From Marinobacterium zhoushanense (GTDB taxonomy: Bacteria > Pseudomonadota > Gammaproteobacteria > Pseudomonadales > Balneatricaceae), in NCBI RefSeq assembly GCF_014641945.1, contig NZ_BMIJ01000005.1, positions 222,718-286,717 of the forward strand: a stretch of DNA of 64,000 bases, in the 5' to 3' direction. The notes beneath the pieces were generated by a model. The model was not told the origin of the DNA and searched no databases. It worked only from the letters and a program-made list of their open reading frames with translations. Made by a program: the position numbers and the translations under genes. Of the stretch, positions 7,096 through 53,100 are shown in pieces (the first letter of the stretch is position 1; the number at the start of each line of letters is the position of its first letter).

Positions 7096-8468
7096 TGCTG
7101 CGCTATCTGCGCCAGAGCCTGCCGGGACGGGTCATCGGCCTGCTGATCCTGATCCTGGGCATCGTCAACGCCACCACCGTGTATGTCTTTTTCGAGGAGC
7201 GCAGCCGGGCGGTGCGCCTCAGTCAGTTGGAGGATCTGATCTCGCGCAGCGCGGGGATGGACCGCCTGCTCGACGAAACACCGCCGGAGTTGCGTACCGA
7301 GGCGCTTGGGGCGGTCACCAGCGAGCGGTTCCGGTTCGATATCGGTGCAACCGCCACCGCCGACCCCTACAACCGCACCGGTGCCGAGCACCCGCTCTAT
7401 CAGCGTCTGGTAGCGCTGTCCGGTAACGATGCCGCGCATGTGCAGCTGTCGATCAGCCCACGCTACTACTGGTGCTACAGCTGGGTGCAGAATCTGCTCA
7501 AGCCCAACCTGCTGTTCGATCCGGGCGATGCCGCACTGCCGATCGCCAGCCTGTCGATTCAGCGTCCGGACGGCCAGTGGCTGAACGCGACGTTGCGCTC
7601 GCCTAGCAGCCTGCCGACCTGGATCGTGCCATTGCTGGTGGCGTTGGGGCTGTTTGCATTGACCGTTTGTGTCGTGGTGGTGATCGTGCGTCAGGTGTCG
7701 GCGCCACTGGGTTGTCTCAGCCGGGCTGCCGACCGTATCGGCCGCGGTGAGCTGAGCGAGGCAATTCCGGAGCAGGGCTCCGAGGATGTGGTGCGTACCA
7801 CCCGCGCCTTCAACCGCATGCAGGACCGGCTCGAACGCTTTGTTACCGACCGCACGCGGATGATGGCGGCGATCTCCCACGACCTGCGCACACCGTTGAC
7901 CATGCTGCGGTTGCACGCCGAGTTCATTCAGCCCGAGAAAAGCCGCGACAAGATTCTGTGCATTCTCAACCAGATGCAGGAGATGCTTGAGGCGACGCTG
8001 GCCTTTACCCGCGAGGAATCGGTGCAGGAGGAGCGGCGTGCCGTGGATCTGGCAGCGCTGATCGGCAGTATCTGTGAAGACCTGCGTGATCTGGGTCATC
8101 CGATCGACTATGACGAGTCCCAGCGCGTGCCCTACCTGTGCCGCTCCGGCTCCATCCGCCGCGCGCTGACCAACCTGATCGAGAACGCGTGCAAATATGG
8201 CCAGCAGGCGGAGGTCGAGCTCAGCGTCCGCGACGATCGGTTGCTGATCGCGGTGCGCGACCGTGGACCTGGCATCCCGGAGGCGGACCAGCTGCGGGTG
8301 TTCGATCCCTTTGTGCGCCTCGAGACCTCACGCAGCCGGGAGACCGGCGGTATCGGCCTGGGCCTCTCCATCGCCCGCACCATCGCCCACTCCCACGGCG
8401 GAGAGATCCGCCTGGCCAACCGCCCCGAGGGCGGCCTGGAGGTGGTACTGGAGCTGCCCACCCACTGA
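7095..8468 (+). CDS. EnvZ-like sensor histidine kinase
   Basis: ATG overlaps the regulator stop (TGATG); two TM segments, HAMP domain, H-box (AISHDLRTPLT) and N, G1, G2 boxes. Confidence 0.8.
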   Translation: MLRYLRQSLPGRVIGLLILILGIVNATTVYVFFEERSRAVRLSQLEDLISRSAGMDRLLDETPPELRTEALGAVTSERFRFDIGATATADPYNRTGAEHPLYQRLVALSGNDAAHVQLSISPRYYWCYSWVQNLLKPNLLFDPGDAALPIASLSIQRPDGQWLNATLRSPSSLPTWIVPLLVALGLFALTVCVVVVIVRQVSAPLGCLSRAADRIGRGELSEAIPEQGSEDVVRTTRAFNRMQDRLERFVTDRTRMMAAISHDLRTPLTMLRLHAEFIQPEKSRDKILCILNQMQEMLEATLAFTREESVQEERRAVDLAALIGSICEDLRDLGHPIDYDESQRVPYLCRSGSIRRALTNLIENACKYGQQAEVELSVRDDRLLIAVRDRGPGIPEADQLRVFDPFVRLETSRSRETGGIGLGLSIARTIAHSHGGEIRLANRPEGGLEVVLELPTH

Positions 8469-8511
8469 CCCTGCATTCAACGGGAACAGTGGATGGGACC
8501 TGCTGTAGCGC

Positions 8512-8958
8512 TCAGTAACTCTTGTAGGGCAGGAACTTGCCCGACATTACCATATTGACCCGGTCGCCCTTGGGATCGGGCTCGCGCTGGATATCCAGCG
8601 AGAAGTCGATGGCGCTCATGATGCCGTCACCGAACTCCTCGTGGATCAGCTCCTTGATCGAGCCGCCGTAGACGCTGACGATCTCGTACAGGCGGTAGAG
8701 CAGGGGGTCGGTGGGGATGCCGCCGGTGCCTTTGGAGGGTACGATCTGCAGCCAGGCCACCGCTTCGTCGGTGAGCTCGAACATCCGACCGACGATCTCC
8801 GCCTGCTCCTTGTTCAGGGTCATCTGGCCGAGACAGGCGGCGGTGGTCCACTCCTTGGAGAGGCCAACTTCCGTGGCCACATCCTTCCATTTGATCCCCT
8901 TGCTGACCTTGGCGGAGAGGATCATCTGAGTCACTTCATCGCGATTGCTGATCATCAT
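8512..8958 (-). CDS. cynS: Cyanase (cyanate hydratase)
   Basis: 148 aa aligning with E. coli CynS over the whole length, including the C-terminal catalytic region (…IHEEFGDGIMSAIDF…); RBS AAGAAGGA 6 nt upstream; lies 31 nt downstream of the kinase gene. Confidence 0.9.
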   Translation of the reverse strand: MMISNRDEVTQMILSAKVSKGIKWKDVATEVGLSKEWTTAACLGQMTLNKEQAEIVGRMFELTDEAVAWLQIVPSKGTGGIPTDPLLYRLYEIVSVYGGSIKELIHEEFGDGIMSAIDFSLDIQREPDPKGDRVNMVMSGKFLPYKSY

Positions 8959-8989
8959 GTAGTCCTTCTTGGTTCGTTTAGGGTTTGGT

Positions 8990-10720
8990 TCACATTAGCG
9001 GGTTGGCGAGCAGGTAGATCAGCGCGCAGGCCAGCAGGGCTGACACCCCCTGCCAGAACAACACCGGGTTGCGTTCGATCAGCGGCGGCCGGGTCTTGTT
9101 CAGGTACTCCCGGTTGGGATGGCGCAGATCGTAGATAAACTCCGATAGGTCGTCATAGCGCTTCTCCGGGCTTGGATGGGTCGCCCGTTTCAGTGCTTCG
9201 TCCACCCAGGCCGGTATCTCGCGCTCGTCATCCAGTATCGAGTCATACCTGAGTTTCTGCTGCGCCTTGGCGGTACGGCACTTGGCCACCTGGGTGCCAT
9301 AGGGGAAACGGCCGCTGAGCATCTGGTAACAGATCACGCCGAGCGAGAACTGGTCCGAGCGCTCGCTGCCGGGAAAGCCGAGAAAGTACTCCGGTGCCGT
9401 GAACAGTGCGGTACCGAGTACCTGTTCCTGGCGGCTGACCACTGTCGCTTCGGCGATGCCGGCGACCCGGGTGGCACCGAAATCGATGATCTTCACCGTG
9501 CCGTTGCGGTCGATCATGATGTTGTCCGGACGCAGGTCCTGATGCAGCATCTCCATGCGGTGGAAAGCGCGCAGACCGCGGGCGATCTGTTCGACGATCG
9601 ACCGCACGGTCTCGATATCGGGGCGCGGGTTGTCGATCAACCATTGGCGCAGGGTCTGGCCCTCAATGTACTCCATCGCCGTGTACAGGTAGTGGCGATT
9701 GCGGCCGGGCGACTCCGCCTTCAGCACGTGGGCGCTGTTGATGCGCCGCGCTATCCACTCCTCCAGCAGGAAACGCTCCAGGTAGTCCGGGTCGTCGGCC
9801 AGGTCGATGGCCGGGGTTTTCAGCGCCACCGGGTCGCCACTGGCCATATCCACAGCCAGGAACACATGGCTGCGGCTGGTGGCGTGCAGTTCGCGGACGA
9901 TCTCGTAACCATCGAACTGCATGCGCGGTTCCAGCATCGGCGGCAGCGGCAGCTGCTCGATCTGCAACTGCAGCTCGGCGTGTTCCGTCCCGGGCACCTG
10001 GTCGACACGGACGATCTGCAGGGTCAGGTTGTCACCGCTGCCCCGTTCCAGCGCGTGCTTGGCGATCTGTCGGGCGGCGTTGTCGAGGGATGTCGGGTGC
10101 TCACGCAGGGTGTTGAGCAGAAACTGGGTGTCGCTGTGTTCGTAGATGCCGTCGGTGGCGAGGATAAAGGTATCCCCGGGCTTGACCGACAGGGCCTGGT
10201 AGTCGATCTCGAGCTGATCGTCGATACCGAGCGCCCGGCTCAGGTAGCTCTCCTGCTGGGAGACCCAGAGCCGATGATCCTTGGTCAGCTGTTCCAGCGC
10301 ATGCTCGTGTACACGGTAGATGCGCGAGTCGCCGACATGAAAAATGTGCGCGGTGGCGGCTTTGATCACCATTGCGCTGAGAGTACAGACGTAGCCTTTA
10401 TCCTTATCGTAACGGTAGTCGCTGCGCCGGGTCTGGGAGTGCAGCCAGGAGTTGGTGGCCGCTATCACCCGCTCGGCGGCAGTGCGCACGGTCCAGGCTT
10501 CCGAGGTACAGAAGTAATCGTCGAGAAAGGATTTGACCGCGGCGGCGCTGGCGATCTGGCTGACGCTGCTCGAGCTGATGCCATCCGCTATCGCCAGGGC
10601 TGCGCCCTTGAGACTCAGTTGCGGCTCTTTTGGGATCAGCGCACCGTGAAAATCCTGATTCAGCTCTTTTCGGCCCTTGTCCGAATACTGGCCAACGCTG
10701 AGCTTGAGGTGACTGGTCAT
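8990..10720 (-). CDS. PP2C-type phosphatase / Ser-Thr protein kinase fusion with C-terminal TM anchor
   Basis: N-terminal PP2C motifs (ADGISS, ATDG, SGDN); kinase VALK, HQDLRPDN and DFG motifs; C-terminal hydrophobic helix; co-directional between the FNT gene and cynS. Confidence 0.8.
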   Translation of the reverse strand: MTSHLKLSVGQYSDKGRKELNQDFHGALIPKEPQLSLKGAALAIADGISSSSVSQIASAAAVKSFLDDYFCTSEAWTVRTAAERVIAATNSWLHSQTRRSDYRYDKDKGYVCTLSAMVIKAATAHIFHVGDSRIYRVHEHALEQLTKDHRLWVSQQESYLSRALGIDDQLEIDYQALSVKPGDTFILATDGIYEHSDTQFLLNTLREHPTSLDNAARQIAKHALERGSGDNLTLQIVRVDQVPGTEHAELQLQIEQLPLPPMLEPRMQFDGYEIVRELHATSRSHVFLAVDMASGDPVALKTPAIDLADDPDYLERFLLEEWIARRINSAHVLKAESPGRNRHYLYTAMEYIEGQTLRQWLIDNPRPDIETVRSIVEQIARGLRAFHRMEMLHQDLRPDNIMIDRNGTVKIIDFGATRVAGIAEATVVSRQEQVLGTALFTAPEYFLGFPGSERSDQFSLGVICYQMLSGRFPYGTQVAKCRTAKAQQKLRYDSILDDEREIPAWVDEALKRATHPSPEKRYDDLSEFIYDLRHPNREYLNKTRPPLIERNPVLFWQGVSALLACALIYLLANPLM

Positions 10721-10780
10721 ATACTCAGATGCCGAAAAAAGCCCCAGCCACCCGCAGGTGACCAGGGTTTGGAAGGAAGG

Positions 10781-11623
10781 TTATACGGTTGCCGGCTTGG
10801 ACGGAGCGGAGGTCGGAATCTCGCGCTTGGAACCGGTACGCACGTGAGTGGTGTACAGGGTCAGGCCGGTGAACGCCAGGCCGCCGACCAGGTTGCCCAG
10901 AGCGGTCGGGATCTCGTTCCAGATGAAGTAGTCGGCGATGGAGAAGTTACCGCCCATGATCATGCTGAACGGGAACAGGAACATGTTGACCACGGAGTGC
11001 TCGAAGCCCATGAAGAAGAACAGCATGATCGGCATCCACATGGCGATCACCTTGCCGCTGACATGGGTGGAGATCATCGCACCGACTACGCCGAGGGAGA
11101 CCATCCAGTTACACAGCATGCCGCGGATGAAGATGGTGAACCAACCCTCTACGCCATAAGCAGCGTAACCAACCGTACGGGATTCGCCGATCTTGGCGAC
11201 TTTCTCGGCGATGGCGCCGCCGTCGGTGTTGTAACCCATGGTGAAGATGAACGACATCATCACCGCCACGGTGAAGGCTCCGGCGAAGTTACCGACGAAT
11301 ACCAGCCCCCAGTTGCGCAGAATCTGACCCGGGGTGACACCGGGGCGCTTGTCGAGCCAGGCCAGCGGGGTGAGCATAAACACACCGGTCAGCAGGTCGA
11401 AGCCCATCAGGTAAAGCATGCAGAAACCGACCGGGAACAGGATCGCGCCGATCAGGAACACGCCGGTTTGTACTGCGACAGTGACGGCAAACACTGCTGC
11501 CAGAGCCAGGATGGCACCGGCCATATAGCCACGGATCAGGGTGTCGCGGGTGGACATGTAGATCTTGGATTCACCGGCATCCACCATCTTGGTTACAAAT
11601 TCTGCGGGAATTAAGTAAGCCAT
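10781..11623 (-). CDS. Formate/nitrite transporter (FNT) family channel, NirC/FocA-like
   Basis: 280 aa, 6 TM segments, FNT signature regions; RBS GAGG upstream. Confidence 0.85.
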   Translation of the reverse strand: MAYLIPAEFVTKMVDAGESKIYMSTRDTLIRGYMAGAILALAAVFAVTVAVQTGVFLIGAILFPVGFCMLYLMGFDLLTGVFMLTPLAWLDKRPGVTPGQILRNWGLVFVGNFAGAFTVAVMMSFIFTMGYNTDGGAIAEKVAKIGESRTVGYAAYGVEGWFTIFIRGMLCNWMVSLGVVGAMISTHVSGKVIAMWMPIMLFFFMGFEHSVVNMFLFPFSMIMGGNFSIADYFIWNEIPTALGNLVGGLAFTGLTLYTTHVRTGSKREIPTSAPSKPATV

Positions 11624-11691
11624 ATTTTTGCCTCGTTCGACGTTAAGGGATCACACACAAAGGGTTCTAACCGACTGAGAGCAACAAAAAA

Positions 11692-11741
11692 ATGGCGTCC
11701 ACACATGCCCCGCCTTTTGCAGGTGCAGTGATGGACGCCAT
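11692..11741 (-). terminator. Leader hairpin with T-tract (candidate attenuator/terminator) upstream of the FNT operon
   Basis: Perfect 10-bp inverted repeat ATGGCGTCCA…TGGACGCCAT with a ~30-nt loop; on the minus strand it is followed by TTTTTTT. It lies ~60 nt upstream of the FNT start codon and ~230 nt downstream of the preceding gene. Confidence 0.45.
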
Positions 11742-11969
11742 TATCCAAAATTCTCAGCTTGTCAGATTTGAGCCAGCTTCAGCTCAAATACTGAATCGGA
11801 TATAGCAGTCAGCGTGCCAAAACCTGTTTTTTGTGAAAATCCCAAATAAAGTCAAAGTGTTACATTATCATTCTGGTTTTGTTGTCAGTCTGTGCCTAGA
11901 TCAAAAATGGTGCGCAGCCGGTCAGGGCTGCGCAGTTAAGGTTCATTTTATATGGTTATTAAGCGGGCG

Positions 11970-14537
11970 TTACGGCTGGGGCAGGGCGGTTTTGAGGTCA
12001 ACGCCAGGGCCGTGCGCCAGGCGGATAGGTGCTGACATCAATCGCCGCTGCAGCGCAGCCGCCAGCAACCCCAGCGCGATGCCACCGCCGATCGCCAGGC
12101 CGTCGATCAGCGGCGAGTGCCCCTCCAGCCCCAGCATCGGCATCAGCACCTCGGGTACCAGGCGGTGCAACAGATAGATCGCGAAGGCCGCCTGCGCCAG
12201 CCGCATCAGCGGTCGCAGGCTCCAGTCGGGCAGCGGAATGCTCGGTACCAGACAGAGCAGCGCGAGTATGCCGAGCAGGCTCATGTACTTGATCCAGCCG
12301 CCATACCAGTTGCCGCCCAGATATGCGGCCAGCGGCATGATTGCGCAGCCGAGGACGATCACCAGCCAACGCTGGCGGCGCGTCTGCGCCGCACTAATGC
12401 ACCAGCCGAGGGCGAACAGGTAGAGTACCCAGGGCACGGTGAACAGCGCCCGTCCGTTCATCGGCCAGAGCTGCGGAATAGTGATCCGCAGTAGTAGTGC
12501 CAGTGCCAGCAGTCCGAGGCCGAAGGTGAAGGGGGACAGCTTGGCCAGTTGTCGGCGCAGCGGCGGTATCAGGAAGGGCAGGACCACCAGCAGCGTGATC
12601 TGCACATAGGCTTCCACGAACCAGTACAGGAACGGCAGCATCTCATGGGTCGAGGGCTTGGTCAGCGCGAAGTTTCCCATCAGTAGCGCCGATACCCAGG
12701 GGACCTCGCCCCAGGCCAGGCTATAGCCTGCCAGCACGATGTAATAGGGAATGAGTACACCGAGCAGCGGGGCAAAATAGGTCCCCCAGTTGCCGGCGCA
12801 GAGCGCCTTCCAGCGGAACGATGAGACGCTCATCCCCATCAGCATCACCATCGCCGCCGCGCCGCCATATACCGGCCAGTGGGTCTGGTGTGTGACGACC
12901 ACCGCCAGGATTGCCAGTACTCGCGTCACCAGATCGGTAGGCAAGCGGTTGCGCTGACCGGGGCGGGCGTTCTCCAGTTCGGCGATCGGCATCCGTTCCC
13001 AGCCCGTCGGTACGCCGCCGAGCCGTTCCTCCAGGGCCAGAGTCAGCTCCACATGGCACAGGGAGTCTCCGCCGAGGCTGGAAAAGCTGTCGTCGGGACG
13101 CACGGCACGCGGTGCAAAGCTGGCGCGAAAGGCGGTCAGTACACCGCCGCTGGCTGTTTTCTGTCCCTGTTGTGCGCGCAGTGCCGGATAATCGATCTTG
13201 CCGTTGGCGCGCCGGGGCAGTGCGCGGAGCGGATGAACACGCACATGTTGGGCGCCGATTCCGGCCAGTTGCGCTGCCTTAGCTTGGACCTCCTCCGCTG
13301 CCGGGGCCGCACCCGCCATGCCGATATGGATCTGCCGGTCGTCCCCCCAGACCGCGACCTCCGGGGCGAAGTGGGCCAGGGCGCGCTCCAACGCGTCATG
13401 ACCGATGCGCAGGCCCGCGATCTTGGACATGCGCGACAGGCGGCCGGTGATACGGTAGATCCCGGCGCGATCGCGCCGGGCCAGGTCGCCGGTAGCCAGT
13501 TCATCGAGTTCAGCGCCATGGGCCAACTCCCGGTATCCCTCGGCATAGCCCATCATCACATTGGGCCCGCGGTAGATCAGTTCGCCCTCTGCTTCCGCGG
13601 TTTTAATCTCGGTTCCCTGTGCGTCACGCAGAGCCAGCGCGCCACCGGGGATGGCGATGCCGATCGCGTCGGGCTTATCCAATGCCATTTCCGGGGGCAG
13701 CCAGGCGATACGCGCGGTGGCCTCGGTCTGACCATACATGACCACGAAGCGCCCCTCATGACGCGCCATCAGCTTGGCCCAGTGCACCACCTTGGCCGGC
13801 TCCATGGCACCGCCGGCCACGGTCATGAAACGCAGGCTGGCAGGCAGATGATCGGCCAGGCCTGCGCTTTCCAGCAGGGTGAAGTGGTGTGGTACGCCCG
13901 CCAGATTGGTGACGCCACTGCGCGCCAGGGCCTGGTTGAATCCGGCGCTGAGCACCGACTCCCCGTGCAGCCAGAGCGATGCGCCCTGGAGCAGATGAGA
14001 GTGCAGCACCGACAGGCCATAGGAGTAGTGCAGCGGCAGTATCAGCGCGGCGCGGTCATCCGCCTGGATATCGAGGTACTCGGCGATAGATCCGGCATTG
14101 GCCTCCAGCGCCTGACGCGAGAGTCGTACGCCACGCCCCTGGCCGGTACTGCCGGAGGTCTGCAGCAGTAGCGCCAGCTCAGGGTGAGGCTCGGCGGCTT
14201 GCCAGTCGTGCCGCTCCGGCTCCCAGCGACCGTTGCGACGGTAGAAGCTCAGGGCTGGACGAAAGCGTTGGCTGAGCGAGCGCATCGTATCCGGGGTATC
14301 GACCGGCACCGGCATCACGGCATGGCCTGCGGCCAGGGTGCCGACATAGGCGGCAATTGCCTGAGGGTCGGAGGCCGCCTCGATCGCGATCAACTGCGGG
14401 GTATCGTATTGGTCGAGGGAAGCCGCAAAGCGGGCAGCTTGTTCGGCCAGCTCGGCATAGCTGAGCAGGATACCGCTGGCATCCAGTAAACAGGGTTGAG
14501 CCCCGAGAGCTCGGAAACGATCCAGGTCGAACAGCAT
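11970..14537 (-). CDS. Tri-domain protein: AMP-dependent adenylation domain + carrier-protein (phosphopantetheine) domain + C-terminal integral-membrane acyltransferase (Acyltransferase_3/OafA-like)
   Basis: Adenylation motifs (TSGSTG, YGQTE, GELIYRGPNVMMGY, RITGRLSRMSKIAG, NGKIDY), a carrier-protein serine motif (LGGDSL), then ~330 aa with ~10 TM helices opening with an AT3-like R-x-D-x-x-R…H signature. Confidence 0.7.
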   Translation of the reverse strand: MLFDLDRFRALGAQPCLLDASGILLSYAELAEQAARFAASLDQYDTPQLIAIEAASDPQAIAAYVGTLAAGHAVMPVPVDTPDTMRSLSQRFRPALSFYRRNGRWEPERHDWQAAEPHPELALLLQTSGSTGQGRGVRLSRQALEANAGSIAEYLDIQADDRAALILPLHYSYGLSVLHSHLLQGASLWLHGESVLSAGFNQALARSGVTNLAGVPHHFTLLESAGLADHLPASLRFMTVAGGAMEPAKVVHWAKLMARHEGRFVVMYGQTEATARIAWLPPEMALDKPDAIGIAIPGGALALRDAQGTEIKTAEAEGELIYRGPNVMMGYAEGYRELAHGAELDELATGDLARRDRAGIYRITGRLSRMSKIAGLRIGHDALERALAHFAPEVAVWGDDRQIHIGMAGAAPAAEEVQAKAAQLAGIGAQHVRVHPLRALPRRANGKIDYPALRAQQGQKTASGGVLTAFRASFAPRAVRPDDSFSSLGGDSLCHVELTLALEERLGGVPTGWERMPIAELENARPGQRNRLPTDLVTRVLAILAVVVTHQTHWPVYGGAAAMVMLMGMSVSSFRWKALCAGNWGTYFAPLLGVLIPYYIVLAGYSLAWGEVPWVSALLMGNFALTKPSTHEMLPFLYWFVEAYVQITLLVVLPFLIPPLRRQLAKLSPFTFGLGLLALALLLRITIPQLWPMNGRALFTVPWVLYLFALGWCISAAQTRRQRWLVIVLGCAIMPLAAYLGGNWYGGWIKYMSLLGILALLCLVPSIPLPDWSLRPLMRLAQAAFAIYLLHRLVPEVLMPMLGLEGHSPLIDGLAIGGGIALGLLAAALQRRLMSAPIRLAHGPGVDLKTALPQP

Positions 14538-14711
14538 GGTGGATGTACTACAAAAAATGGGTGATTAGAGGTAGATGACAATATTAAGACAAATGAGAAT
14601 TAATCGTGAATAGAAATTTTCAACTTACCCACCGTGCAAGTTGAAAACACTTGGTGTGCACCAAGATGGCGCGCGGTCCTTGTCGATGGCCGGAAATGAA
14701 GCGCAGCTCGA

Positions 14712-16028
14712 CTAGTGCGGCAAGCCGTTGCTCTTGCCCTTCAGCTGCTCGATGTCGGCGATCAGCTTCTGCGCGACCGCTGCCAGCGAGCGGTTTTGCG
14801 CCATTGAGGTTTGCTGCAGCAGCCGGTAGGCCTGCTCTTCGGTCAGCCCGCGGAACTGCATCAGCAGCCCCTTGGCACGTTCCAGCGTCTTGCGATCCGA
14901 CAGCGCCTGTCGGGCGGCCGTGAGTTCGTCGTGCATCTGTTTCAGCCCCTCAGCCTGTTGCCTGACCAGGCCGTAGAGCGAGTGCACCCAGTCGCTGCTG
15001 GTGGCGCCCGAGCTGCCAGCTTCCGTCGGCGCCGGGGCCTGTTCCGGCGCGAGCAGCATGGTCAGCGGCGAGGCACCGGGCTCATGCAGGGAGGCGATCA
15101 GCTCCAGGCTGTCGTGATGTTTTTTCAGCTCCTTGTTCGCCTCGCGCACGCGCTGCTGACTCAATTGCAGCAGGGCATCGGCCAGTTGCCGCTCCAGTTG
15201 TTGCATCCTGTCGATCCGCCGGGTGGCCGCGTCATACCAGACCTCGCTGATCTCGGACGGCAGTCCGGTACCGGGTTGGACACGGGCGATCAGCAGACGC
15301 AAGCGTAGAAACTCCAAGGTCTCTTCGTGGTTTTCCAGTTCACGCCAACCGTCTATTGGAGCGGCTTGCGCAAACTCCTCGAAGGTGTGGAAGCTTTGCT
15401 GCTGGCTGTCGACCAGGTCAGACAACCGGTGCAGCAGCGCTTGATCGAACTCACCCGCGGCGAAGCCGATCACCGCCCAGGCCCGCTCCTGTCCTGCGTA
15501 CTCCTTGCCCTGCATGAAATTGAACATGGCCACCAGCGCGCGGGTGATCTCGGGATCGTCGGAGATGTCGGCGGCTTCGAAGATCACCGACAGCAGGGCG
15601 GTTATCAGGCGATTGAAGGCTTGGGTACTCTCGGTGGCAGTCAGCGCCCGTTGGCCGATCTGCTCACGCAGGGCTTGAAGGCCGTCCAATCCATGCAGCG
15701 CATAGGCGATATTGTTGAACAGGCGTGCACTGCCGACCCGGGTCCAGCTTTCGATATCCAGTTGCTCAAGTCGGCACCTGAAGCCTTGTTCGGCGTGCAG
15801 AGCCGTTGGGATCTGCTGCAGGCGCTGGCGAGCGAAACGCACGCCTTTAGAGGCAAGAAACACGTTGGATAACCCGCGCTCGCGCTGCAGCTCATGGATC
15901 AGGTTGCTGACCTGGGTCACCAGTTCGCAACTGGCCATCAACTGGCGCAGCAGGGCGATCTCCGAGCGCTTGGAGGCGAGGAAGAAGGTTTCGGTTGCCA
16001 GGGCGTTGCCGGTCATCGACTGATCCAT
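14712..16028 (-). CDS. NasR-like nitrate/nitrite-sensing antitermination regulator (NIT domain + C-terminal ANTAR domain)
   Basis: 438 aa; C-terminal ANTAR-like helix region (…LERAKGLLMQFRGLTEEQAYRLLQQTSMAQNRSLAAVAQKLI); N-terminal region matches the NIT sensor domain of NasR. Confidence 0.75.
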   Translation of the reverse strand: MDQSMTGNALATETFFLASKRSEIALLRQLMASCELVTQVSNLIHELQRERGLSNVFLASKGVRFARQRLQQIPTALHAEQGFRCRLEQLDIESWTRVGSARLFNNIAYALHGLDGLQALREQIGQRALTATESTQAFNRLITALLSVIFEAADISDDPEITRALVAMFNFMQGKEYAGQERAWAVIGFAAGEFDQALLHRLSDLVDSQQQSFHTFEEFAQAAPIDGWRELENHEETLEFLRLRLLIARVQPGTGLPSEISEVWYDAATRRIDRMQQLERQLADALLQLSQQRVREANKELKKHHDSLELIASLHEPGASPLTMLLAPEQAPAPTEAGSSGATSSDWVHSLYGLVRQQAEGLKQMHDELTAARQALSDRKTLERAKGLLMQFRGLTEEQAYRLLQQTSMAQNRSLAAVAQKLIADIEQLKGKSNGLPH

Positions 16029-16145
16029 ATAGAGTCACAAGTCCGTTGAGTGCAGCAAATCCTATACCAGTGTTGGTATGGCGCTGGCGAGGCTGCGGCG
16101 GTGGATGTTACTGTGTGGCCCCACCGAGCCTACGGAGAGAGTGCG

Positions 16146-16391
16146 ATGAAAGAGTTTATGTACGCCTTGGCCTTGTGTTTGTTGATGGCGTCGGGTTGGA
16201 GCATCTCCAAAGCACCGAGTGAGCGCGCGATAAAAGCCGCGCCCGATGCGGCCACCGCCGCTCAACTCGAGCAGGAGCGCGGACAGATCCGCGCCATCGC
16301 CGGCGGTGCCCTGGTCTTGGCACTGGTGTGTGGGGTGGTGGGCTGGCGCTCCAAAAGCCGTGAGGATGCAGATAGGAAAAAGCTCGATTGA
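16146..16391 (+). CDS. Small hypothetical protein with signal peptide and C-terminal TM helix
   Basis: ATG at 16146 within ORF 16050..16391; hydrophobic N- and C-terminal segments; no homology recognised. Confidence 0.3.
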   Translation: MKEFMYALALCLLMASGWSISKAPSERAIKAAPDAATAAQLEQERGQIRAIAGGALVLALVCGVVGWRSKSREDADRKKLD

Positions 16392-16461
16392 TCAAATCGG
16401 GCCGCGCTACCTGCAGTAATAGGTACAGGCTTTCTGGCCCGCTTGGTAAAGCATCTGCTCC

Positions 16462-16475
16462 TTGATAAACATCAT
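16462..16475. promoter_or_regulatory. Candidate FNR box upstream of ubiU (TTGAT-N4-ATCAT)
   Basis: One mismatch to TTGAT-N4-ATCAA; ~60 nt upstream of the ubiU start. Confidence 0.4.
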
Positions 16476-16534
16476 GTCGCTGTACTTCCCGAACCGCTAG
16501 GCTGGGCGCACTCGTTTTCGCTCAGGAGGTTGCA

Positions 16535-17527
16535 GTGGAACTGGTGTGTCCCGCCGGGAGTTTTCCCGCCCTGAAGGCGGCCGTGGATAACGGTGCCGAC
16601 GCCGTCTACTTCGGCTTTCGCGATAAAACCAACGCGCGTCAGTTTGCCGGTCTCAACTTCGACCGCCGCAAAGCGGAGAAGGGGATCGACTACGCCCGCA
16701 GCCGAGGCGTCAAGGTGCTCTGTGCTATCAACACCTATCCCCAGCCCGAGGGCTGGTCCAGCTGGCAGGCGGCAGTGGATATGGCCGCCGACCTGGGTGT
16801 CGATGCGCTGATCGCTGCCGATATGGGAGTATTGGGCTATGCCGCCGAACGCCATTCCGCGCTGCGTCTGCACTTGTCGGTACAGGGGTCGGCCACCAAT
16901 TACGAGGCGCTGAACTACTACCGTGACCAGTTCGGCATCCAGCGTGCTGTGCTGCCCCGGGTGCTGTCACTGGCGCAGGTGGAACATCTGGCCGCGCACA
17001 CCCCGGTGGAGCTGGAGGTATTCGCCTTCGGCAGCCTTTGTATCATGGTCGAGGGGCGCTGTTATCTATCCTCCTACCTGACCGACGAATCCCCCAACAC
17101 CTGCGGCGCCTGCTCGCCGGCCAAGGCCGTGCGCTGGCAGGAGACCGCGCGCGGGCTGGAGTCACGCCTGAACGAGGTGCTGATTGACCGCTATGCCGAT
17201 GGCGAAAAGGCCGGTTATCCCACCCTGTGCAAGGGGCGTTTCGAGGTGGAGGGCAACGTCTACCACGCCATGGAAGAACCGACCAGCCTCAACACTCTGG
17301 ACCTGATCCCGGAGCTGAAACGGATCGGTATCCAGGCGGTCAAGATCGAGGGTCGGCAGCGCAGCCCCGCCTACGTGTCCCAGGTCACCCGGATCTGGCG
17401 CGAGGCGCTCGACAACGCCGCAACGCAGGGTGCCTTCAAGGTACAACCGCAGTGGGACCGCGGGCTGGAGGCGCTGTCCGAGGGCAGCACCACCACTATC
17501 GGTGCCTATCATCGCAGCTGGCAGTAG
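16535..17527 (+). CDS. ubiU: UbiU, U32-peptidase-family O2-independent ubiquinone hydroxylase subunit
   Basis: 330 aa; near-collinear match to E. coli UbiU/YhbU including the conserved Cys residues (FGSLCIMVEGRCYLSSY…PNTCGACSP…TLCKGR). Confidence 0.85.
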   Translation: MELVCPAGSFPALKAAVDNGADAVYFGFRDKTNARQFAGLNFDRRKAEKGIDYARSRGVKVLCAINTYPQPEGWSSWQAAVDMAADLGVDALIAADMGVLGYAAERHSALRLHLSVQGSATNYEALNYYRDQFGIQRAVLPRVLSLAQVEHLAAHTPVELEVFAFGSLCIMVEGRCYLSSYLTDESPNTCGACSPAKAVRWQETARGLESRLNEVLIDRYADGEKAGYPTLCKGRFEVEGNVYHAMEEPTSLNTLDLIPELKRIGIQAVKIEGRQRSPAYVSQVTRIWREALDNAATQGAFKVQPQWDRGLEALSEGSTTTIGAYHRSWQ

Positions 17528-17535
17528 GGGGATAG

Positions 17536-18432
17536 ATGGACAAGGCATTGAAACTGACCCTGGGGCCGCTGCTCTACTTCTGGCCCAAGCAGGATGTGTA
17601 TAACTTCTACGCCGAGATGGCGGAGCAACCGCTGGATACCGTCTACCTGGGCGAGACGGTTTGTTCCAAGCGGCGTCAGCTCAAGCTCGACGACTGGATC
17701 GAGATCGGCCGTGACCTGCGCGCCTGCGGCAAGCAGGTGGTGCTCTCCAGCCTGGCGCTGCTGGAGGCAGAGTCGGAACTGAAGATGCTGCGCCGCATCT
17801 GCGCCAACGGCGAATTCCAGGTCGAGGCCAACGATATGGCCGCGGTGCAGTTGCTGAGCAGCCAAGGGGTGGAGTTCGTCACCGGCCCGTCGATCAATAT
17901 CTACAACCTGGGTACGCTCAAGCGACTCTACAACAGCGGCATGCGCCGCTGGGTGATGCCGGTGGAGCTGTCGGCGCAGACGCTGGAGCAGCTGCTGCAG
18001 CAGGTCGCGCAGGATGGCTCTCTGCCCGAGTTGGAGACCGAGGTGTTCGCTTACGGCTGCCTGCCGCTGGCCTATGCCGCCCGCTGCTTCACCGCCCGCT
18101 ACCGCAACCTGCCCAAGGACAACTGCAACTTCTGTTGTATCGAGTACCCGGACGGCATCCCGGTGCGCTCGCAGGAGGGGCGCGAGTTGTTCACGATGAA
18201 CGGCATTCAGACCCTGTCCGGGGAGCACTACAATCTGGAGCACGAGCTGGATGCCATGCAGGTCATGGGCGTGGACAGGGTGCGGTTGAGCCCGCAGCGG
18301 CAGCGGATGGCAGCTGTAATCAAGCGTTTCAGTCAGCGCCTGAAGGGTGAACAGAAAGATACCATCCCACTGCTCAGCGCCGGTCAATGCAACGGCTACT
18401 GGTACGGGTTACCGGGCATGGACAGGGTGTAG
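17536..18432 (+). CDS. ubiV: UbiV, U32-peptidase-family partner of UbiU
   Basis: 298 aa U32 protein directly downstream of ubiU; conserved Cys cluster (CSKRRQ…[13 protein letters not shown]…CNFCC). Confidence 0.85.
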
Positions 18433-21682: not shown

Positions 21683-21723
21683 CGGGGCGGCACTAAAACC
21701 AAAGCAAAACCAGGTTAAAGCAA

Positions 21724-21787
21724 GGCCAAACCACACTAGGGCCAAACGAAACTAAGGCCAAACCAAATTAAGGCCAAACCAAATTAA
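21724..21787. repeat. 4 x 16-nt tandem direct repeat (GGCCAAACCAAATTAA-like) in the nrdD / mini-ORF spacer
   Basis: Units at 21724-39, 21740-55, 21756-71, 21772-87; the last two identical; A-rich against a GC-rich background; ends at the SD GGAGAG. Confidence 0.8.
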
Positions 21788-21798
21788 GGAGAGTCATC

Positions 21799-21948
21799 AT
21801 GAACGCAGCCAAACTACTGAAACCGGAAGAGCGTCAGCGTTGCGAAGTCTGGACCCGGGTGATGGGTTACCACCGGCCGGTATCCCAGTTCAACGCCGGC
21901 AAACGCTCGGAACACCGGGAGCGTCGCCACTTCGTCGAGAAAGGCTGA
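21799..21948 (+). CDS. Stand-alone 49-aa glycyl-radical domain of class III RNR (NrdD C-terminal module encoded separately)
   Basis: MNAAKLLKPEERQRCEVWTRVMGYHRPVSQFNAGKRSEHRERRHFVEKG carries the NrdD glycyl-radical signature R-V-x-G-Y…FNxGK…R..HF. Own SD (AAGGAGAG, 7 nt spacing); stop overlaps the nrdG start (ATGA). Not in the supplied ORF track because it is under 60 aa. Confidence 0.7.
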   Translation: MNAAKLLKPEERQRCEVWTRVMGYHRPVSQFNAGKRSEHRERRHFVEKG

Positions 21949-22670
21949 TGGCAATGCGGCTGCGCACACCGAAGGAGCTGCGGGTCAGCGGCATGACACC
22001 GCTGACCACAATTGACTTCCCGGACCACCTGGCCTGCGTACTCTATACCCAGGGCTGTCCGCTGCGCTGCCGCTACTGTCACAACCCCCAGCTGATCCCC
22101 TTTGGCGATCAGCTGGCGTCCCTATCCTGGCTGGAAATTGAAGAGTTCCTGCACAGGCGACAGGGTCTGCTCGAAGCCGTCGTGTTCAGCGGTGGAGAGC
22201 CAACCCTGCAGCCCGCCCTGGCCGCGGCGATGGCCGTGGTCAGGGAGCTGGGTTTCAAGGTCGGGCTGCACACTGCCGGGGTCAGCCCCGAGCGCTTGGC
22301 GCAGCTGCTGCCGCTGGCCGACTGGGTCGGCCTCGATGTCAAAGCCCCATTCCACCGTTATCCACAGGTCACCGGTCGCAACCACCAGGCGCAGCAGAAC
22401 CGCAACAGCCTGGCACTGTTGCTGGCGTCGGATGTCCGCTTCGAATGCCGCACCACCGTGGACTGGCGCCTGTTTACGCCGGACGAACTGCACGACCTGG
22501 CCCGCCAGTTGGCCGAGCTTGGCGTACAACGTTACGCGGTGCAGATCAACCAGGCCCGCAACTGCCTCGATCCCGAGCTGGAGCAGACGGTCACTCTATC
22601 GACCGAACAGCTGAGGGTTCTGAAACAGAAGTTGGCTGCGCTGTTCCCGGTATTTGATTGGCGGGAGTAG
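21948..22670 (+). CDS. nrdG: Anaerobic RNR activating enzyme NrdG (radical SAM)
   Basis: CPLRCRYCHNP radical-SAM motif; ~240 aa from ATG 21948. Confidence 0.85.
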   Translation: MAMRLRTPKELRVSGMTPLTTIDFPDHLACVLYTQGCPLRCRYCHNPQLIPFGDQLASLSWLEIEEFLHRRQGLLEAVVFSGGEPTLQPALAAAMAVVRELGFKVGLHTAGVSPERLAQLLPLADWVGLDVKAPFHRYPQVTGRNHQAQQNRNSLALLLASDVRFECRTTVDWRLFTPDELHDLARQLAELGVQRYAVQINQARNCLDPELEQTVTLSTEQLRVLKQKLAALFPVFDWRE

Positions 22671-25647: not shown

Positions 25648-27399
25648 CTATTTCAACCAGAACGCGATCAGCGTGAACAGCGCGATCATGAACCAGACCA
25701 GCGACATCAACTGCCAGAACAGCAGCGCGTTGGGGTGCTTCTGCTCCGCCTCGCGCGGAACCAGGAACTCCGGGTTGGGCTGGGTCAGGTCCTGCATCAT
25801 CCGGTCGATGCAGTCATAGCGCTGGCTGGGGTCGATGGCCAGCGCCTTCTCCAGCGCGCGGTCGAACCAGACCGGGATGATCGGGTTGTGGCGGTCGGCC
25901 GGGATATAGGCGAGCTTCTGCAGCTGCTGCGGCTTGTCGCAGTTCTCCAGCCCGTTGCCGTAGGGCAGGTGGTGGGTGAACAGCTCGTAGGTGATCGCGG
26001 CCAGTGAGAACATATCGCCGCGGATACCGGTATTCTGGCCCAGACGGAACACCGGGTCGGAGTAGTTCAGCGTGCCCAGCACCCGGTCGCGCTTGAGCGG
26101 GACGAAGATCTCGTTGATCCCGGCCACGAACACCGAGCCGAAATCGACGATTACCGCGCTGTTGTCGGGGCGGACCATGATATTGCTCGGCTTCAGGTCC
26201 TGGTGCAGCGTCTCACGCTGGTGGAACGCCTTCAGGCCATCGGCGATCTGCTTGATCAGCTCGATCGCCAGCGCCGGTTTCGGTATCGGGTTCTGTTTCA
26301 TCCAGCGGTCCAGTGATACCCCCTCCACCGGTTCCATCAGGTAGTAGAGGAAGGTCTTCGGGCGGTGGGCGATATGGATACGCACCACGTGATCGTTGCT
26401 GATGCGGCTACCGACCCACTCCTCCATGATGAAGCGTTCGATATAGGCGGCGTCATCCTCGAAGTTGCGCGACGGCGTCTTCATCACCCAGCGCTCGCCG
26501 CTCTCGATCTCCTGTACCTGGTACAGCTGGCTGCGGCTGCTGGCGTACAGCTCCTCTTCGATCAGGTAGCCGTCGATCTTCATCCCCGGTTCCAGCTCCG
26601 GCGGGAAGGGCAGCGCGGTGAGCTGTTCGGTGAGCTGGTCCAGTGAGGCGTCGTGCAGTTGATCGACGCGGACCAACTGACAGCTCAGGTTATCCCGGCT
26701 ACCGGCCCGGTAGGCGGCGTTGACCAGTGCCTCGCAACAGCTCTTCAGCTCGCCGCTGCTGCTGGCCAGGCGCAGCAGCGTTTCCGGATCCAGCGAGTCA
26801 TGCACGCCATCGGTGGTGAGCAGAAACAGGTCGCCCGGTTCGATCTCCAGCGGCCGGTAGTCGATCTCCAGGTGGGTATCCATGCCCATGGCGCGGGACA
26901 GGCAGCCCTCACGCTTGTTGAGCTGGGTGACATGATCCTCGGTCAGCTGGTCGAGACGACCGTCCCGAATCAGGTAGATACGGCTATCGCCGATATGGAA
27001 CAGGTGCGCGGTGCGCGACTTGATCACCAGCAGCGACAGCGTACAGACGTAGCCGCGGGTGCTGGAGAGGTACTCATGGCTGCGTGAGTAGAGGGTGCGG
27101 TTGATCGAGGTGAGCACCTTCTGCGCGGACTTGCCCACGGTCCAGATATCGGGGGTGTCGAAATAGTCGCTGAGAAACTCGCGCACACAGATTTCCGCCG
27201 CCTCGCCACCCGCTTCGGCGGTGCTGACGCCATCGGCGATCACCGCCACCGCGCCCTTGGTGGTCAGCAGGTTGCCCTCGGGCTGAACGAAGCCGAGGCA
27301 GTCCTCGTTTCGCTCCTTGCGCCCCTTGTCGCTGCACTGTCCGACGGACAGCTGGATCTCATCCCGTAGATACATCGCCTGCAGGTTCAGGTTGCTCAT
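25648..27399 (-). CDS. Second PP2C-phosphatase / Ser-Thr kinase fusion with C-terminal TM anchor (paralog of 8990..10720)
   Basis: PP2C motifs (ADGVS, TTDG, SRDN); kinase VVMK, HQDLKPSN, DFG; C-terminal hydrophobic helix; 80 nt downstream of narK on the same strand. Confidence 0.8.
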   Translation of the reverse strand: MSNLNLQAMYLRDEIQLSVGQCSDKGRKERNEDCLGFVQPEGNLLTTKGAVAVIADGVSTAEAGGEAAEICVREFLSDYFDTPDIWTVGKSAQKVLTSINRTLYSRSHEYLSSTRGYVCTLSLLVIKSRTAHLFHIGDSRIYLIRDGRLDQLTEDHVTQLNKREGCLSRAMGMDTHLEIDYRPLEIEPGDLFLLTTDGVHDSLDPETLLRLASSSGELKSCCEALVNAAYRAGSRDNLSCQLVRVDQLHDASLDQLTEQLTALPFPPELEPGMKIDGYLIEEELYASSRSQLYQVQEIESGERWVMKTPSRNFEDDAAYIERFIMEEWVGSRISNDHVVRIHIAHRPKTFLYYLMEPVEGVSLDRWMKQNPIPKPALAIELIKQIADGLKAFHQRETLHQDLKPSNIMVRPDNSAVIVDFGSVFVAGINEIFVPLKRDRVLGTLNYSDPVFRLGQNTGIRGDMFSLAAITYELFTHHLPYGNGLENCDKPQQLQKLAYIPADRHNPIIPVWFDRALEKALAIDPSQRYDCIDRMMQDLTQPNPEFLVPREAEQKHPNALLFWQLMSLVWFMIALFTLIAFWLK

Positions 27400-27479: not shown

Positions 27480-28952
27480 CTATTCCACGCTGATCAGCTC
27501 GACCGTACCGTCCGGCAGCACCTCGGCCATCTGGCCGCTGGGCTCGTCCATGAACTGCACCAGCAGGAACACCAGGCCCGCGGAAGCACCGATCACCATG
27601 AAGAAGGTGGAGTAGTCGACGAAGCTCAACACGGTCAGGTAGCACACCGCACCGACATTGCCGTAAGCCCCGGCCATACCGGCAATCTGCCCGGTCATGC
27701 GGCGCTTGATCAGCGGCACCACGGCGAATACCGCACCCTCACCGGCTTGGACGAAGAAGGAGCAGGCCATGGTGGCGACTACTGCCGCGGGGATCCACCA
27801 GCCGCCGTCGATCCGGCTCAGCACGAAGTAGCCTACAGCCAGACCCAGGATCAGTACGCTGAGGGTCTTGCGACGACCGATACGGTCGCTCAGGTGACCG
27901 CCGGTGGGACGGGCGACCAGGTTCATGAAGGCGAAGCCGGAGGCGAGCAGACCCGCCTTGACCGGATCCAGACCCTCGAAGGTCTCCAGGAAGAACAGCG
28001 GCAGCATGGAAACCACCGCCAGCTCGGAGCCGAAGGTAACGAAGTAGGCCACGTCGAGTACCGCCACCTGCTTGAACTTGTAGCGCTGGATCTCCGGCAC
28101 ACCCTCTTTCAGGTGCTCCTCGTTGACGTGGTAGATCGCCCGCAGCTGGAACAGGAACAGCCCGACCAACACGGCATAGATTGCCTTGGTGCCGAACTCA
28201 TCGAGCAGGCCCAGGTTGGTCGGCGACAGTTTCCAGGTCAGCACCGCCAGCGCGGCGTACATCGGCAGGTTCATCAGGATGTAGAAGACGAAGTCGCCCT
28301 TGCTGGTCACCTCCAGGCCGCCATGTTTCTTCGGCTTGAAGTAGGTGGAGCCCTTCGGGGTGTTGCGTGCCACGCGGTAGAACACGAAGCCGTACAGGAT
28401 CGCCATTACACCGGCAGTGGCCAGTGCGTAACGCCAGCCGTTGTCACCGCCGTAGAGCAGCGCGAGGGTGGGCAGGGTCATGGCGCCGGCGGCGGAACCG
28501 AAGTTACCCCAGCCGCCGTATACCCCCTCGGCCACACCGACCTGCTTGGCCGGGAACCACTCGCCGACCAAGCGGATACCGATCACGAACCCGGCGCCGA
28601 TGAAGCCGCTCAGGAAACGCATGATCGCCAGCTGCTCATAGGTCTGCGCCGCCGCAAAACCGAGGCAGATAAAGCCGCCGATCACCAGCAGCATGCTGTA
28701 CACCACCCGCGGGCCGTACTTATCCACCAGCGTACCGATGACGATACGCGCCGGGATCGTTAGCGCCACGTTAAGAATCAACAGCGCCTTGATCTCGGGG
28801 CCGCTCAGATCGAACGCCTCCTTGATATACGCCATCATCGGCGCATGGCTGAACCACACCACAAAGGTGAGGAAAAACGCGAACCAGGTAACGTGGAGGG
28901 TCTTGATCTTGGGATCGCCAAAATCGAGCAACCTCAGATTGTTGGTAGACAT
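27480..28952 (-). CDS. narK: NarK-type MFS nitrate/nitrite transporter
   Basis: 490 aa, 12 TM segments, nitrate/nitrite-porter signature regions; RBS AGGAG. Confidence 0.85.
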
Positions 28953-29116: not shown

Positions 29117-29130
29117 TTGATGCAGGTCAA
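29117..29130. promoter_or_regulatory. Candidate FNR box (TTGAT-N4-GTCAA) upstream of narK
   Basis: ~170 nt upstream of the narK start codon; a degenerate copy of the GGTA-cac-TTAGTGGTA motif lies ~40 nt further upstream (29166-29188). Confidence 0.35.
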
Positions 29131-30516: not shown

Positions 30517-30585
30517 AACACGTAACAAACCTCAGCAATCGCTCCCGTTGGTCGCAGGGACAGCTAAAACGCTTCGCTTATTTGT

Positions 30586-53082: not shown

Positions 53083-53100
53083 GTCCGGGGAGAAGAGAAA

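Follow-up and report, generated by a model that had tools for sequence, protein, structure and literature searches.

Cyanate is a low-abundance but widely used marine and soil nitrogen source. The cyn operon of E. coli is composed of cynTSX together with CynR. Many cyanase carriers possess neither CynABD nor CynX as an entry route for cyanate. In the nitrifiers Nitrososphaera gargensis and Nitrospira, an FNT channel adjoining the cyanase gene cynS was proposed as a low-affinity cyanate transporter (PMC10753782). Here, a stretch of 64,000 nucleotides (nt) from Marinobacterium zhoushanense (contig NZ_BMIJ01000005.1, positions 222,718 to 286,717; hereafter the window) was analysed for a predicted operon in which an FNT channel gene is followed by a gene for a PP2C phosphatase/Ser-Thr kinase fusion and by cynS. 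The three genes, all on the minus strand, are given below in window numbering.

10781..11623, minus strand: FNT channel, NirC-alpha type by its signature residues, 280 amino acids (aa); PF01226
8990..10720, minus strand: PP2C phosphatase/Hanks-type Ser-Thr kinase fusion, predicted to be tail-anchored, 576 aa; Pfam domains
8512..8958, minus strand: cyanase gene cynS, 147-148 aa; cyanase equivalog models above cutoffs

Nas operons combine NtrC/sigma54 control with ANTAR antitermination, the ANTAR target being a hexaloop whose first base is A and whose fourth is G (PMC10783516). The locus resembles nasFEDCBA/NasR of Klebsiella oxytoca in having a gene with NIT and ANTAR domains, a sigma54-type promoter-like element and an A1/G4 hexaloop hairpin which would compete with an intrinsic terminator. 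In relatives, this nasF-like leader precedes FNT-kinase-nirBD-nasC-cobA. Unlike nasFEDCBA, the first gene codes for an FNT channel and not for an ATP-binding cassette (ABC) transporter, and the kinase/phosphatase comes next. The enzyme in the window is a cyanase, with no nitrite or nitrate reductase, and an unrelated 855-aa gene stands between the regulator gene and the operon.

The locus is also similar to cynABDS of Synechococcus elongatus and cynFABDS of Pseudomonas pseudoalcaligenes, where a transporter precedes cynS in one nitrogen-regulated unit and the transporter type is shared with nitrate/nitrite uptake. The Pseudomonas operon likewise has a sigma54 promoter. The window locus differs from these operons in that a channel takes the place of the ATP-driven, high-affinity ABC importer, in the additional kinase/phosphatase and in a putative antiterminator of the nitrate/nitrite type instead of the cyanate-responsive CynF. 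By analogy, the operon may be described as a nasF-type operon with its enzyme swapped for cyanase, and also as a cynABDS-like operon with the ABC importer swapped for a gated channel. With E. coli cynTSX it shares a cyanase with conserved catalytic residues in one operon with a membrane protein, but its control logic is different. None of the carbonic anhydrase CynT, the major facilitator superfamily (MFS) transporter CynX and the LysR-type CynR adjoins cynS in the window, and an NrtABC-like ABC transporter is absent directly upstream of it. The neighbours are the FNT channel, the kinase and a convergent EnvZ/OmpR-like pair.

The proposal made for the nitrifiers is of the same kind as the one weighed here, being suggested by the same adjacency (PMC10753782). 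The present loci belong to heterotrophic Proteobacteria and Campylobacterota and possess a conserved kinase/phosphatase and a nas-type leader. Their linkage was quantified and alternates with nirBD, while the nitrifier FNTs are likened to them by adjacency and not by orthology.

Among characterised channels, the FNT nitrite transporters include NitM of marine cyanobacteria, NAR1.1 of Chlamydomonas, NirC of enterobacteria and NasH of Paracoccus. They share the FNT fold and the central His and Thr with the window protein, a link to assimilatory nitrite reductase with its orthologous group, and nitrogen-regulated expression with what is predicted for the window operon. NitM needs post-translational restraint: its over-expression is lethal on nitrite, and an unknown post-translational regulator was postulated (Maeda et al. 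2015, PMC4390861). Alpha-cyanobacterial NitM carries an autoinhibitory C-terminal tail, whereas the C-tail of the window FNT lacks conservation and a separate kinase/phosphatase is encoded beside it. The central His and Thr are also found in LCIA (NAR1.2) of Chlamydomonas, a bicarbonate/nitrite FNT of the chloroplast envelope (PDB 9v2a), which differs at four pore-signature positions and is a eukaryotic protein of the carbon-concentrating mechanism.

Linkage of the FNT channel with cynS and nirBD

The neighbourhood of orthologous channels was surveyed in 80 species, one genome each, which carry the 80 closest of at least 595 genomic matches to the window channel. The survey covered the 10-kilobase (kb) flanks of each locus. 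Genes were detected by tblastn with family representatives and the identities of the neighbours were confirmed by Pfam. In 23 of the 80 species, cynS was situated within 3 kb of the channel gene. Twelve of these loci show the order FNT-kinase-cynS as in the window, seven show FNT-cynS-kinase and three cynS-FNT, and one is divergent. Random placement, with one cynS per genome assumed, would give about 0.1 such cases (P ~1e-44). The linkage spans Gamma-, Beta- and Alphaproteobacteria and Campylobacterota. The adjacency on which the initial annotation had based its candidate cyanate (or nitrite) channel is in this way a conserved one, found in 23/80 species and in three gene orders.

The commonest neighbour of the channel was the PP2C-kinase, which lies directly downstream in 72/80 species. 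This bears out the suggestion that a kinase/phosphatase accompanies the FNT as a built-in partner. nirB/nirD were observed within 3 kb in 37/80 species, a number which rises to 44/80 if 10 kb are allowed. One or more nas genes (nirBD, nasC, nrtAB, cobA, nasR) were near the channel in 52/80. A gene with NIT and ANTAR domains (NasR-type) was present within 10 kb in 19/80, mostly divergent and immediately upstream. The typical order is nirB-nirD-FNT-kinase in pseudomonads and NasR<->FNT-kinase-nirB-nirD-nasC-cobA in Alteromonas. The orthologous group is primarily a part of nitrite/nitrate assimilation.

Within this group, cynS and nirBD are alternative neighbours of the FNT-kinase pair. nirBD was found beside 3/23 cynS-positive loci against 41/57 cynS-negative loci (Fisher p = 2.6e-6), and the 12 loci with the order FNT-kinase-cynS all lack nirBD within 10 kb. 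In three loci (L022, L026 and L038), cynS is positioned within or beside full nas clusters including nirB. The nearest species-level relative of the window in the scan, L004, whose FNT is 90% identical, has the FNT-kinase pair without cynS.

The cynS-linked channels are dispersed over the FNT tree and form no clade of their own. The cyanases of the FNT modules fall into two or more deep cynS lineages, and none of the alternative gene orders is confined to a single lineage. Taken with the scattered FNTs, this indicates several independent recruitments of cynS into the module.

A second census started from the cyanase. It comprised 80 metagenome loci with cyanases 66-79% identical to that of the window, 39 of them with enough flanking DNA, and is thus limited to a single cyanase clade and to metagenome contigs which differ in length. 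An NrtABC/CynABD-like ABC transporter was directly upstream of cynS in 20/39 loci. The FNT was beside cynS in 6/39, in most cases along with the kinase, and other nas genes were beside it in 2/39. The remaining 11/39 showed miscellaneous contexts with no ABC transporter, FNT or other nas gene adjacent; in one sampled locus without ABC transporter or FNT, an unrelated MFS gene adjoins cynS. The FNT, with or without the kinase, is the second recurrent transporter partner of the sampled cyanase clade, after the CynABD-like ABC transporter, and it occupies the same position upstream of cynS.

The cyanase of the window scored above the cutoffs of both equivalog models (165.1 vs 113.3 for TIGR00673 and 212 vs 150 for NF002773), and both cyanase domains, CYNS_N and Cyanate_lyase, are present. 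Residues R89, E92 and S115 do not vary among 16 cyanases of FNT modules; we take them to correspond to the catalytic R96, E99 and S122 of E. coli.

Features of the channel, the kinase/phosphatase and the leader

The window channel matched PF01226 with an E-value of 6e-65, covering profile positions 1-239 of 240. It fell below the cutoffs of the FocA models (127.7 vs 290.1 for TIGR04060 and 64.4 vs 440 for NF008069) and of the enterobacterial NirC/NirC-beta equivalog NF008595 (52.3 bits vs 293). Among relatives of solved structure LCIA was the best match with 101 bits, followed by FocA (60), HSC (55) and Salmonella NirC (4fc4, 38). A pore signature of 13 residues, F63/F67/L77/L78/T79/G80/V81/N172/V175/F202/H209/V212/N213, is invariant in 81/81 sequences, the window protein and its 80 orthologues. 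The central pore histidine H209 and the omega-loop threonine T79 align with H209 and T91 of FocA.

The subfamily was assigned by the NirC-alpha signatures of Mukherjee et al. 2017 (PMC5525234). The central constriction F-F-H-V is formed by F63, F202, H209 and V212, and the cytoplasmic slit carries F67, L78 and V81 where FocA has L79, F90 and T93, each residue being present in 81/81. V212 stands where FocA has A212. Family membership and pore signature together show a channel of the NirC-alpha type. An identity as FocA formate channel was rejected on the scores below cutoff and on F67 and V212 in place of Leu 79 and Ala 212. By family membership the protein is predicted to be a homopentamer of six-helix protomers, and nitrite transport is suggested by the family together with the nirBD linkage in relatives.

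The orthologous group is 75-90% identical across Gamma-, Beta- and Alphaproteobacteria and Campylobacterota, with 117/280 positions invariant. Beyond this group, full-length relatives in a library clustered at 50% identity fall to at most 47% identity. The N-terminal cytoplasmic segment is near-invariant and contains five Ser/Thr residues. All 13 examined pore residues are identical between cynS-linked and nirBD-linked channels, and no residue separates the two sets; the largest frequency difference is 0.49, at a position off the pore. A cyanate-specific FNT variant was rejected, as there is no clade, no discriminating residue and an invariant pore.

The channel is 75-90% identical over four classes and the adjoining kinase only 37-68% identical to that of the window (L004-L083), which may reflect either extreme constraint on the channel or horizontal movement. 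In Parathalassolituus penaei (L003, 6875-12631) two FNT paralogues flank a gene with NIT and ANTAR domains, and the kinase lies 3' of the downstream one only.

In the fusion protein, the PP2C domain spans residues ~14-239 (Pfam PP2C_2 match 17-199) and the protein-kinase domain residues ~271-537 (Pfam Pkinase match 281-522). The kinase residues K300, D394...N400, D413-F-G and A-P-E as well as the PP2C metal-binding motifs are kept in at least 98% of 76 homologues, and the glycine-rich loop is not recognisable in the sequence. Enzymatic activity of the fusion is likely from this conservation. A single C-terminal hydrophobic helix was found in 71/76 homologues. With such a C-terminal membrane anchor, the catalytic domains should face the cytoplasm, where the FNT termini also lie (PMC5572259). 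Over its full length, the kinase of the window is 100% identical to a database protein of M. zhoushanense. Public names for the kinase are generic only. A literature search for a functional study of it (PA1782, nasA with kinase, cyanase with kinase) returned none, and PA1782 is named there merely as a predicted kinase. PA1782 presumably lies beside nasA and nirB.

A second transporter-kinase pair is present in the window.

27480..28952, minus strand: NarK-family nitrate/nitrite MFS transporter (TIGR00886, 315.6 vs cutoff 311.7)
25648..27399, minus strand: second PP2C-kinase fusion, directly after the NarK gene, 41% identical to the first kinase over full length

This pair is ~15 kb from the FNT operon and the same extra pair was found in L026, L028 and L047, showing, with the NarK pair as context, that the kinase family partners with N-oxyanion transporters.

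The three genes of the operon are arranged head to tail with gaps of 60 nt (FNT-kinase) and 31 nt (kinase-cynS), and their coordinates are those of the initial annotation. The same genes with the same boundaries (280, 575-576 and 147 aa) were called independently by NCBI in two sister species. A ribosome-binding site of its own had been assigned to each gene. Good Shine-Dalgarno-like sequences precede FNT (GAGG, 7 nt 5' of the ATG) and cynS (AAGGA, 4 nt 5' of the ATG), and the kinase ATG is preceded by a weak GAG only. An open reading frame of 812 aa at 9176-11614 on the plus strand, antisense to FNT and kinase, lacked family support and was set aside as an artefact of high G+C. The control elements of the operon are as follows.

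14712..16028, minus strand: NasR-type regulator gene with NIT (E 3e-52) and ANTAR (E 6e-19) domains
11970-14537, minus strand: AMP-binding and membrane acyltransferase-3 fusion, 855 aa, between the NasR-type gene and the FNT leader
11805..11819, minus strand: sigma54-type (-24/-12) promoter-like element TGGCACGCTGACTGC (sequence match)
11767..11788, minus strand: leader hairpin P1, UUUGAGC(U)-GAAGCU-(G)GCUCAAA (leader fold)
11732..11747, minus strand: leader hairpin P2, UGGAU-AAUGGC-GUCCA, with the A1/G4 hexaloop of an ANTAR target
11686..11741, minus strand: leader terminator AUGGCGUCCA...UGGACGCCAU followed by U7 (leader fold)
10733..10767, minus strand: intergenic hairpin with U-run, possibly a partial terminator or transcript-stabilising element (terminator scan)

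A promoter scan of 8300-12100 found no sigma70-like promoter. The element TGGCACGCTGACTGC may function as the promoter, and most related leaders have TGGCA-N7-8-TTG[CT] elements ~55-65 nt 5' of the conserved hairpin. The 200 nt upstream of FNT are strongly folded relative to shuffled sequences (z = -6.5). The window contains the P2 motif just once in its 64 kb. A search of related loci (2 x 1.45 Mb) gave 32 matches, of which 24 lie within 320 nt upstream of FNT and three more upstream of nrtA, nirB or cobA, making 27/32 associated with nas leaders. Alignment of 23 leaders showed no variation in the P2 core. The 5' arm of the terminator is made of the P2 loop and the 3' half of P2, so that antiterminator and terminator would be mutually exclusive. 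All aligned leaders (23/23) retain the base of the terminator stem, three pairs show compensatory changes, and switching between the two forms is predicted. An Rfam search of 8300-16500 at its E-value threshold gave no family, and the leader matches no curated RNA family.

P1 is tentatively regarded as a leader element. In the closest leaders (L004, L014 and L067) its counterpart is positioned just 5' of a conserved ACAAT with loops GCUGCC, AGGGCA and AGUGCC. The window loop GAAGCU has G4 and is without A1. Over 25 leaders, the P1 hairpin was found in 20 against 17.7 expected from shuffles, which is not above chance, and a canonical second ANTAR hexaloop did not emerge across the whole set.

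The NasR-type gene lies ~3 kb upstream of the operon and its NIT-ANTAR product is the presumed partner of the leader. The order NasR, AMP-binding gene, FNT, kinase, cynS is the same in two sister species. The intervening 855-aa gene has a G+C of 0.66 against 0.57 in its surroundings, and it is found at the same place in Marinobacterium sp. D7 and M. lacunae (L164, L165). No gene intervenes in M. aestuariivivens (L014), where NasR is ~385 nt upstream of FNT. FNR-type boxes are absent from the FNT-kinase-cynS operon in a scan of the window which found five of them elsewhere. Because of the nas-type leader, promoter and regulator and the lack of an FNR-type box, the operon is placed, as a prediction, in a nitrogen-limitation and nitrate/nitrite regulon.

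The FNT-kinase gap contains an 11-pair hairpin (10767-10742) followed by CUUUUUU. As a terminator it was rejected as a finding and kept as a caveat, since the scan gave two terminator-like sites where 2.3 would be expected from shuffled sequences, and the z-score of its minimum free energy is only -1.4. Read-through from FNT into kinase and cynS is plausible despite the hairpin. Many orthologous loci (stop codon plus 90 nt, L004-L083) carry a GC-rich hairpin immediately behind the FNT stop codon. A strict terminator-like test was passed 3' of FNT in 17/80 loci, and many more have a hairpin without U-run. Such hairpins would agree with a single promoter giving strong expression of the channel and weak expression of the kinase.

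Cyanate as a candidate substrate of the channel

The favoured reading, to which a probability of about one half is given, is that the operon belongs to the nas regulon and scavenges nitrogen, that its regulated nitrite channel also admits cyanate and that cyanase was recruited to consume the cyanate. Transcription would start at the sigma54-type promoter under nitrogen limitation through NtrC, and the leader terminator would halt it unless the NIT-ANTAR protein binds P2, a control logic like that of the Klebsiella nasF operon. The NirC-alpha FNT would then import nitrite as anion plus proton. The membrane-anchored kinase/phosphatase is supposed to set the phosphorylation state of the channel and hence its activity, a wholly conjectural step, with the highly conserved N-terminal segment of the FNT as the likely target. 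The purpose of such a gate may be to match uptake to nitrogen status and to avoid toxic build-up of nitrite. Cyanase would have been recruited repeatedly, in the place which nirBD holds in relatives, because the same narrow pore admits cyanate. Once the channel is on, cyanate would enter and be converted to ammonium and CO2, so that nitrogen is gained and a toxin removed. The key step is the putative permeation of cyanate through the FNT pore. Cyanate is a triatomic monovalent anion with a size and an acid strength (pKa of the conjugate acid) similar to those of nitrite.

This reading is favoured by a recruitment of cynS which is recurrent and position-specific and alternates with nirBD and CynABD. 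Overlap between the two anions is also documented for other transporters. CynABD transports nitrite besides cyanate, cynBD mutants of P. pseudoalcaligenes show cyanate uptake when nitrate is present, and in Azotobacter cyanate is carried by the nitrate permease (PMC6627978).

Several observations weigh against it. Nitrite uptake by cyanobacterial NitM, the one member of this broad FNT lineage assayed with cyanate, is unaffected by cyanate in 10-fold excess (PMC4390861). A cyanobacterial nitrite-transporter homologue other than NitM, 40% identical to the window channel, differs at 2/12 pore positions (V for L78 and N for V81), and the NitM result may therefore not transfer, either way. The pores of cynS-linked and nirBD-linked channels do not differ, so that the sequence gives no hint of cyanate. 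The regulator is of the nitrate/nitrite-sensing type and not a cyanate sensor such as CynR or CynF, and only one of the two canonical ANTAR-target hexaloop hairpins is clearly present. Co-regulation by nitrogen limitation could alone place cynS in nas operons. The hairpin with U-run 3' of FNT could split the FNT transcript from kinase-cynS. No NirB-sized gene was present among the scanned open reading frames of the 64-kb window, hence nirBD provides no local nitrite sink there.

The strongest competing account, which is possible though doubtful, is an FNT-kinase pair for nitrite only. cynS would then be a passenger sharing the nitrogen-limitation signal, and its cyanate would arise internally from carbamoyl phosphate or urea or enter by another route. 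The primary association of the FNT with nirBD and nas genes, the NasR/ANTAR-type control region, the identical pores, the failure of cyanate to inhibit NitM (PMC4390861) and the position of cynS in or beside the full nas clusters with nirB in L022, L026 and L038 all agree with it. The 11/39 related cyanases without an adjacent ABC or FNT transporter further suggest that cyanase can work alone. Simple co-regulation, however, predicts neither the mutual exclusivity of cynS and nirBD (p = 2.6e-6) nor the constant placement of cynS inside the FNT-kinase unit, in three orders, rather than elsewhere in nas clusters. It also does not predict that a known type of cyanate transporter is the other recurrent upstream neighbour. 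The opposite view, an FNT which evolved cyanate specificity in a cyn operon with kinase, analogous to cynTSX or cynABDS, is improbable. The FNT is indeed the sole transporter of the operon, FNT-kinase-cynS loci lack nirBD within 10 kb and a published precedent exists in nitrifiers (PMC10753782). Yet there is no cynS-specific FNT clade and no discriminating residue (maximum frequency difference 0.49, not in the pore), all pore residues are as in nirBD-linked orthologues, L004 with its 90% identical FNT has the pair without cynS, and the leader and regulator are nas-type elements which also front FNT-kinase-nirBD operons. The proposal of a cyanate-specific channel is accordingly not upheld, given the nas association in 52/80 species in addition to the missing clade, the missing discriminating residue and the invariant pore. 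Cyanate-type control of the operon fared no better, as a sigma54-type promoter-like element, an ANTAR-type leader and a NasR-type gene were found instead.

Two further functions are very unlikely. In one, the FNT delivers bicarbonate as co-substrate of cyanase in the manner of LCIA (NAR1.2) and replaces E. coli CynT. LCIA is the best solved-structure match (101 bits vs 60 for FocA and 38 for NirC) and carries bicarbonate and nitrite (PMC4620153), and no carbonic anhydrase adjoins cynS in the window. However, FocA positions 79, 90, 93 and 212 are L, F, N and A in LCIA against F, L, V and V in the window channel, and neither the nirBD linkage nor the nas-type control is explained. Bicarbonate is moreover millimolar in seawater and cells make their own CO2. 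In the other, the FNT is an export valve which lets nitrite or cyanate out for detoxification, a role also considered for NirC and FocA of enterobacteria. According to the FocA literature, FNTs can in principle work in both directions, and the window is rich in respiratory nitrate-reduction genes which generate nitrite. Against export, promoter and leader are of a type associated with nitrogen limitation and assimilation, and the operon lacks the FNR-type boxes seen at the respiratory genes. The partner enzymes in relatives (NirBD, NasC, CobA and cyanase) consume their substrate in the cytoplasm for assimilation, and the NarK-kinase pair already covers respiratory nitrate/nitrite exchange.

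A bolder extension of the favoured reading is speculative and rather unlikely as a whole. In this extension the PP2C/kinase is a dedicated phospho-switch for N-oxyanion transporters, with one paralogue for the NirC-alpha FNT and one for NarK, the channel is bispecific for nitrite and cyanate, and FNT-kinase is a portable unit for gated anion entry which takes either nirBD or cyanase.

Remaining features of the window and significance of the locus

The window is largely an island of anaerobic nitrate respiration, with narGHJI at 47014-53775. The following boxes were found in it by motif scan.

19843, 29117, 42165, 46803 and 60498: FNR/ANR-type boxes, TTGAY-N4-RTCAA

Five such boxes were found against 0.19 expected, and FNR-type boxes mark nrdD, narK, a NarX-like sensor gene (40163-41983) and narG. 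The box TTGATGCAGGTCAA at 29117-29130 lies upstream of the NarK-kinase pair. A pair of U32-peptidase-family genes, which we presume to resemble UbiU/UbiV of oxygen-independent ubiquinone synthesis, adjoins the anaerobic ribonucleotide reductase genes nrdD and nrdG (16535-18432, 19934-22670); these genes fit the anaerobic character of the region. The stretch 30000-32000 has a low G+C of 0.475 against ~0.60 and open reading frames without Pfam matches beside an SPFH/Band-7 gene, and it may be foreign DNA.

The beta-carbonic anhydrase gene at 54718-55359, which had been listed along with the operon, is real (Pro_CA, E 1e-55). It belongs to the nar cluster, in the context narGHJI-ppiC-CA-moaA, 43 kb from the operon. 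Homologous beta-carbonic anhydrase genes lie between kinase and nirB in three FNT loci and beside cynS in one (L021, L053, L063, L074), and their recurrence may hint at a bicarbonate/CO2 link to FNT modules.

An FNT beside cynS as a cyanate route is already known as a proposal for nitrifiers (PMC10753782). What is new concerns the heterotrophs: the breadth and statistics of the FNT-cynS association, the way cynS alternates with nirBD, and a module with a nas-type leader and a conserved kinase/phosphatase partner. No description of the FNT-kinase pairing was found in the literature. If the channel were nitrite-only, the locus would be an ordinary nas operon with a co-regulated cyanase.

One highly conserved channel type is a recurrent alternative partner of cyanase in at least four bacterial classes, and a concrete candidate protein can be named. 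FNT-kinase is at the same time a two-gene unit of hundreds of genomes, with at least 595 matches to the channel and the kinase adjoining it in 90% of the 80 species surveyed. A kinase/phosphatase which gates the channel, if this is its role, would explain the restraint of nitrite uptake in heterotrophs, a question left open by PMC4390861. Should the tentative extension to NarK also be true, the FNT/NarK phospho-switch would be the missing post-translational control of nitrite/nitrate uptake in heterotrophic bacteria.

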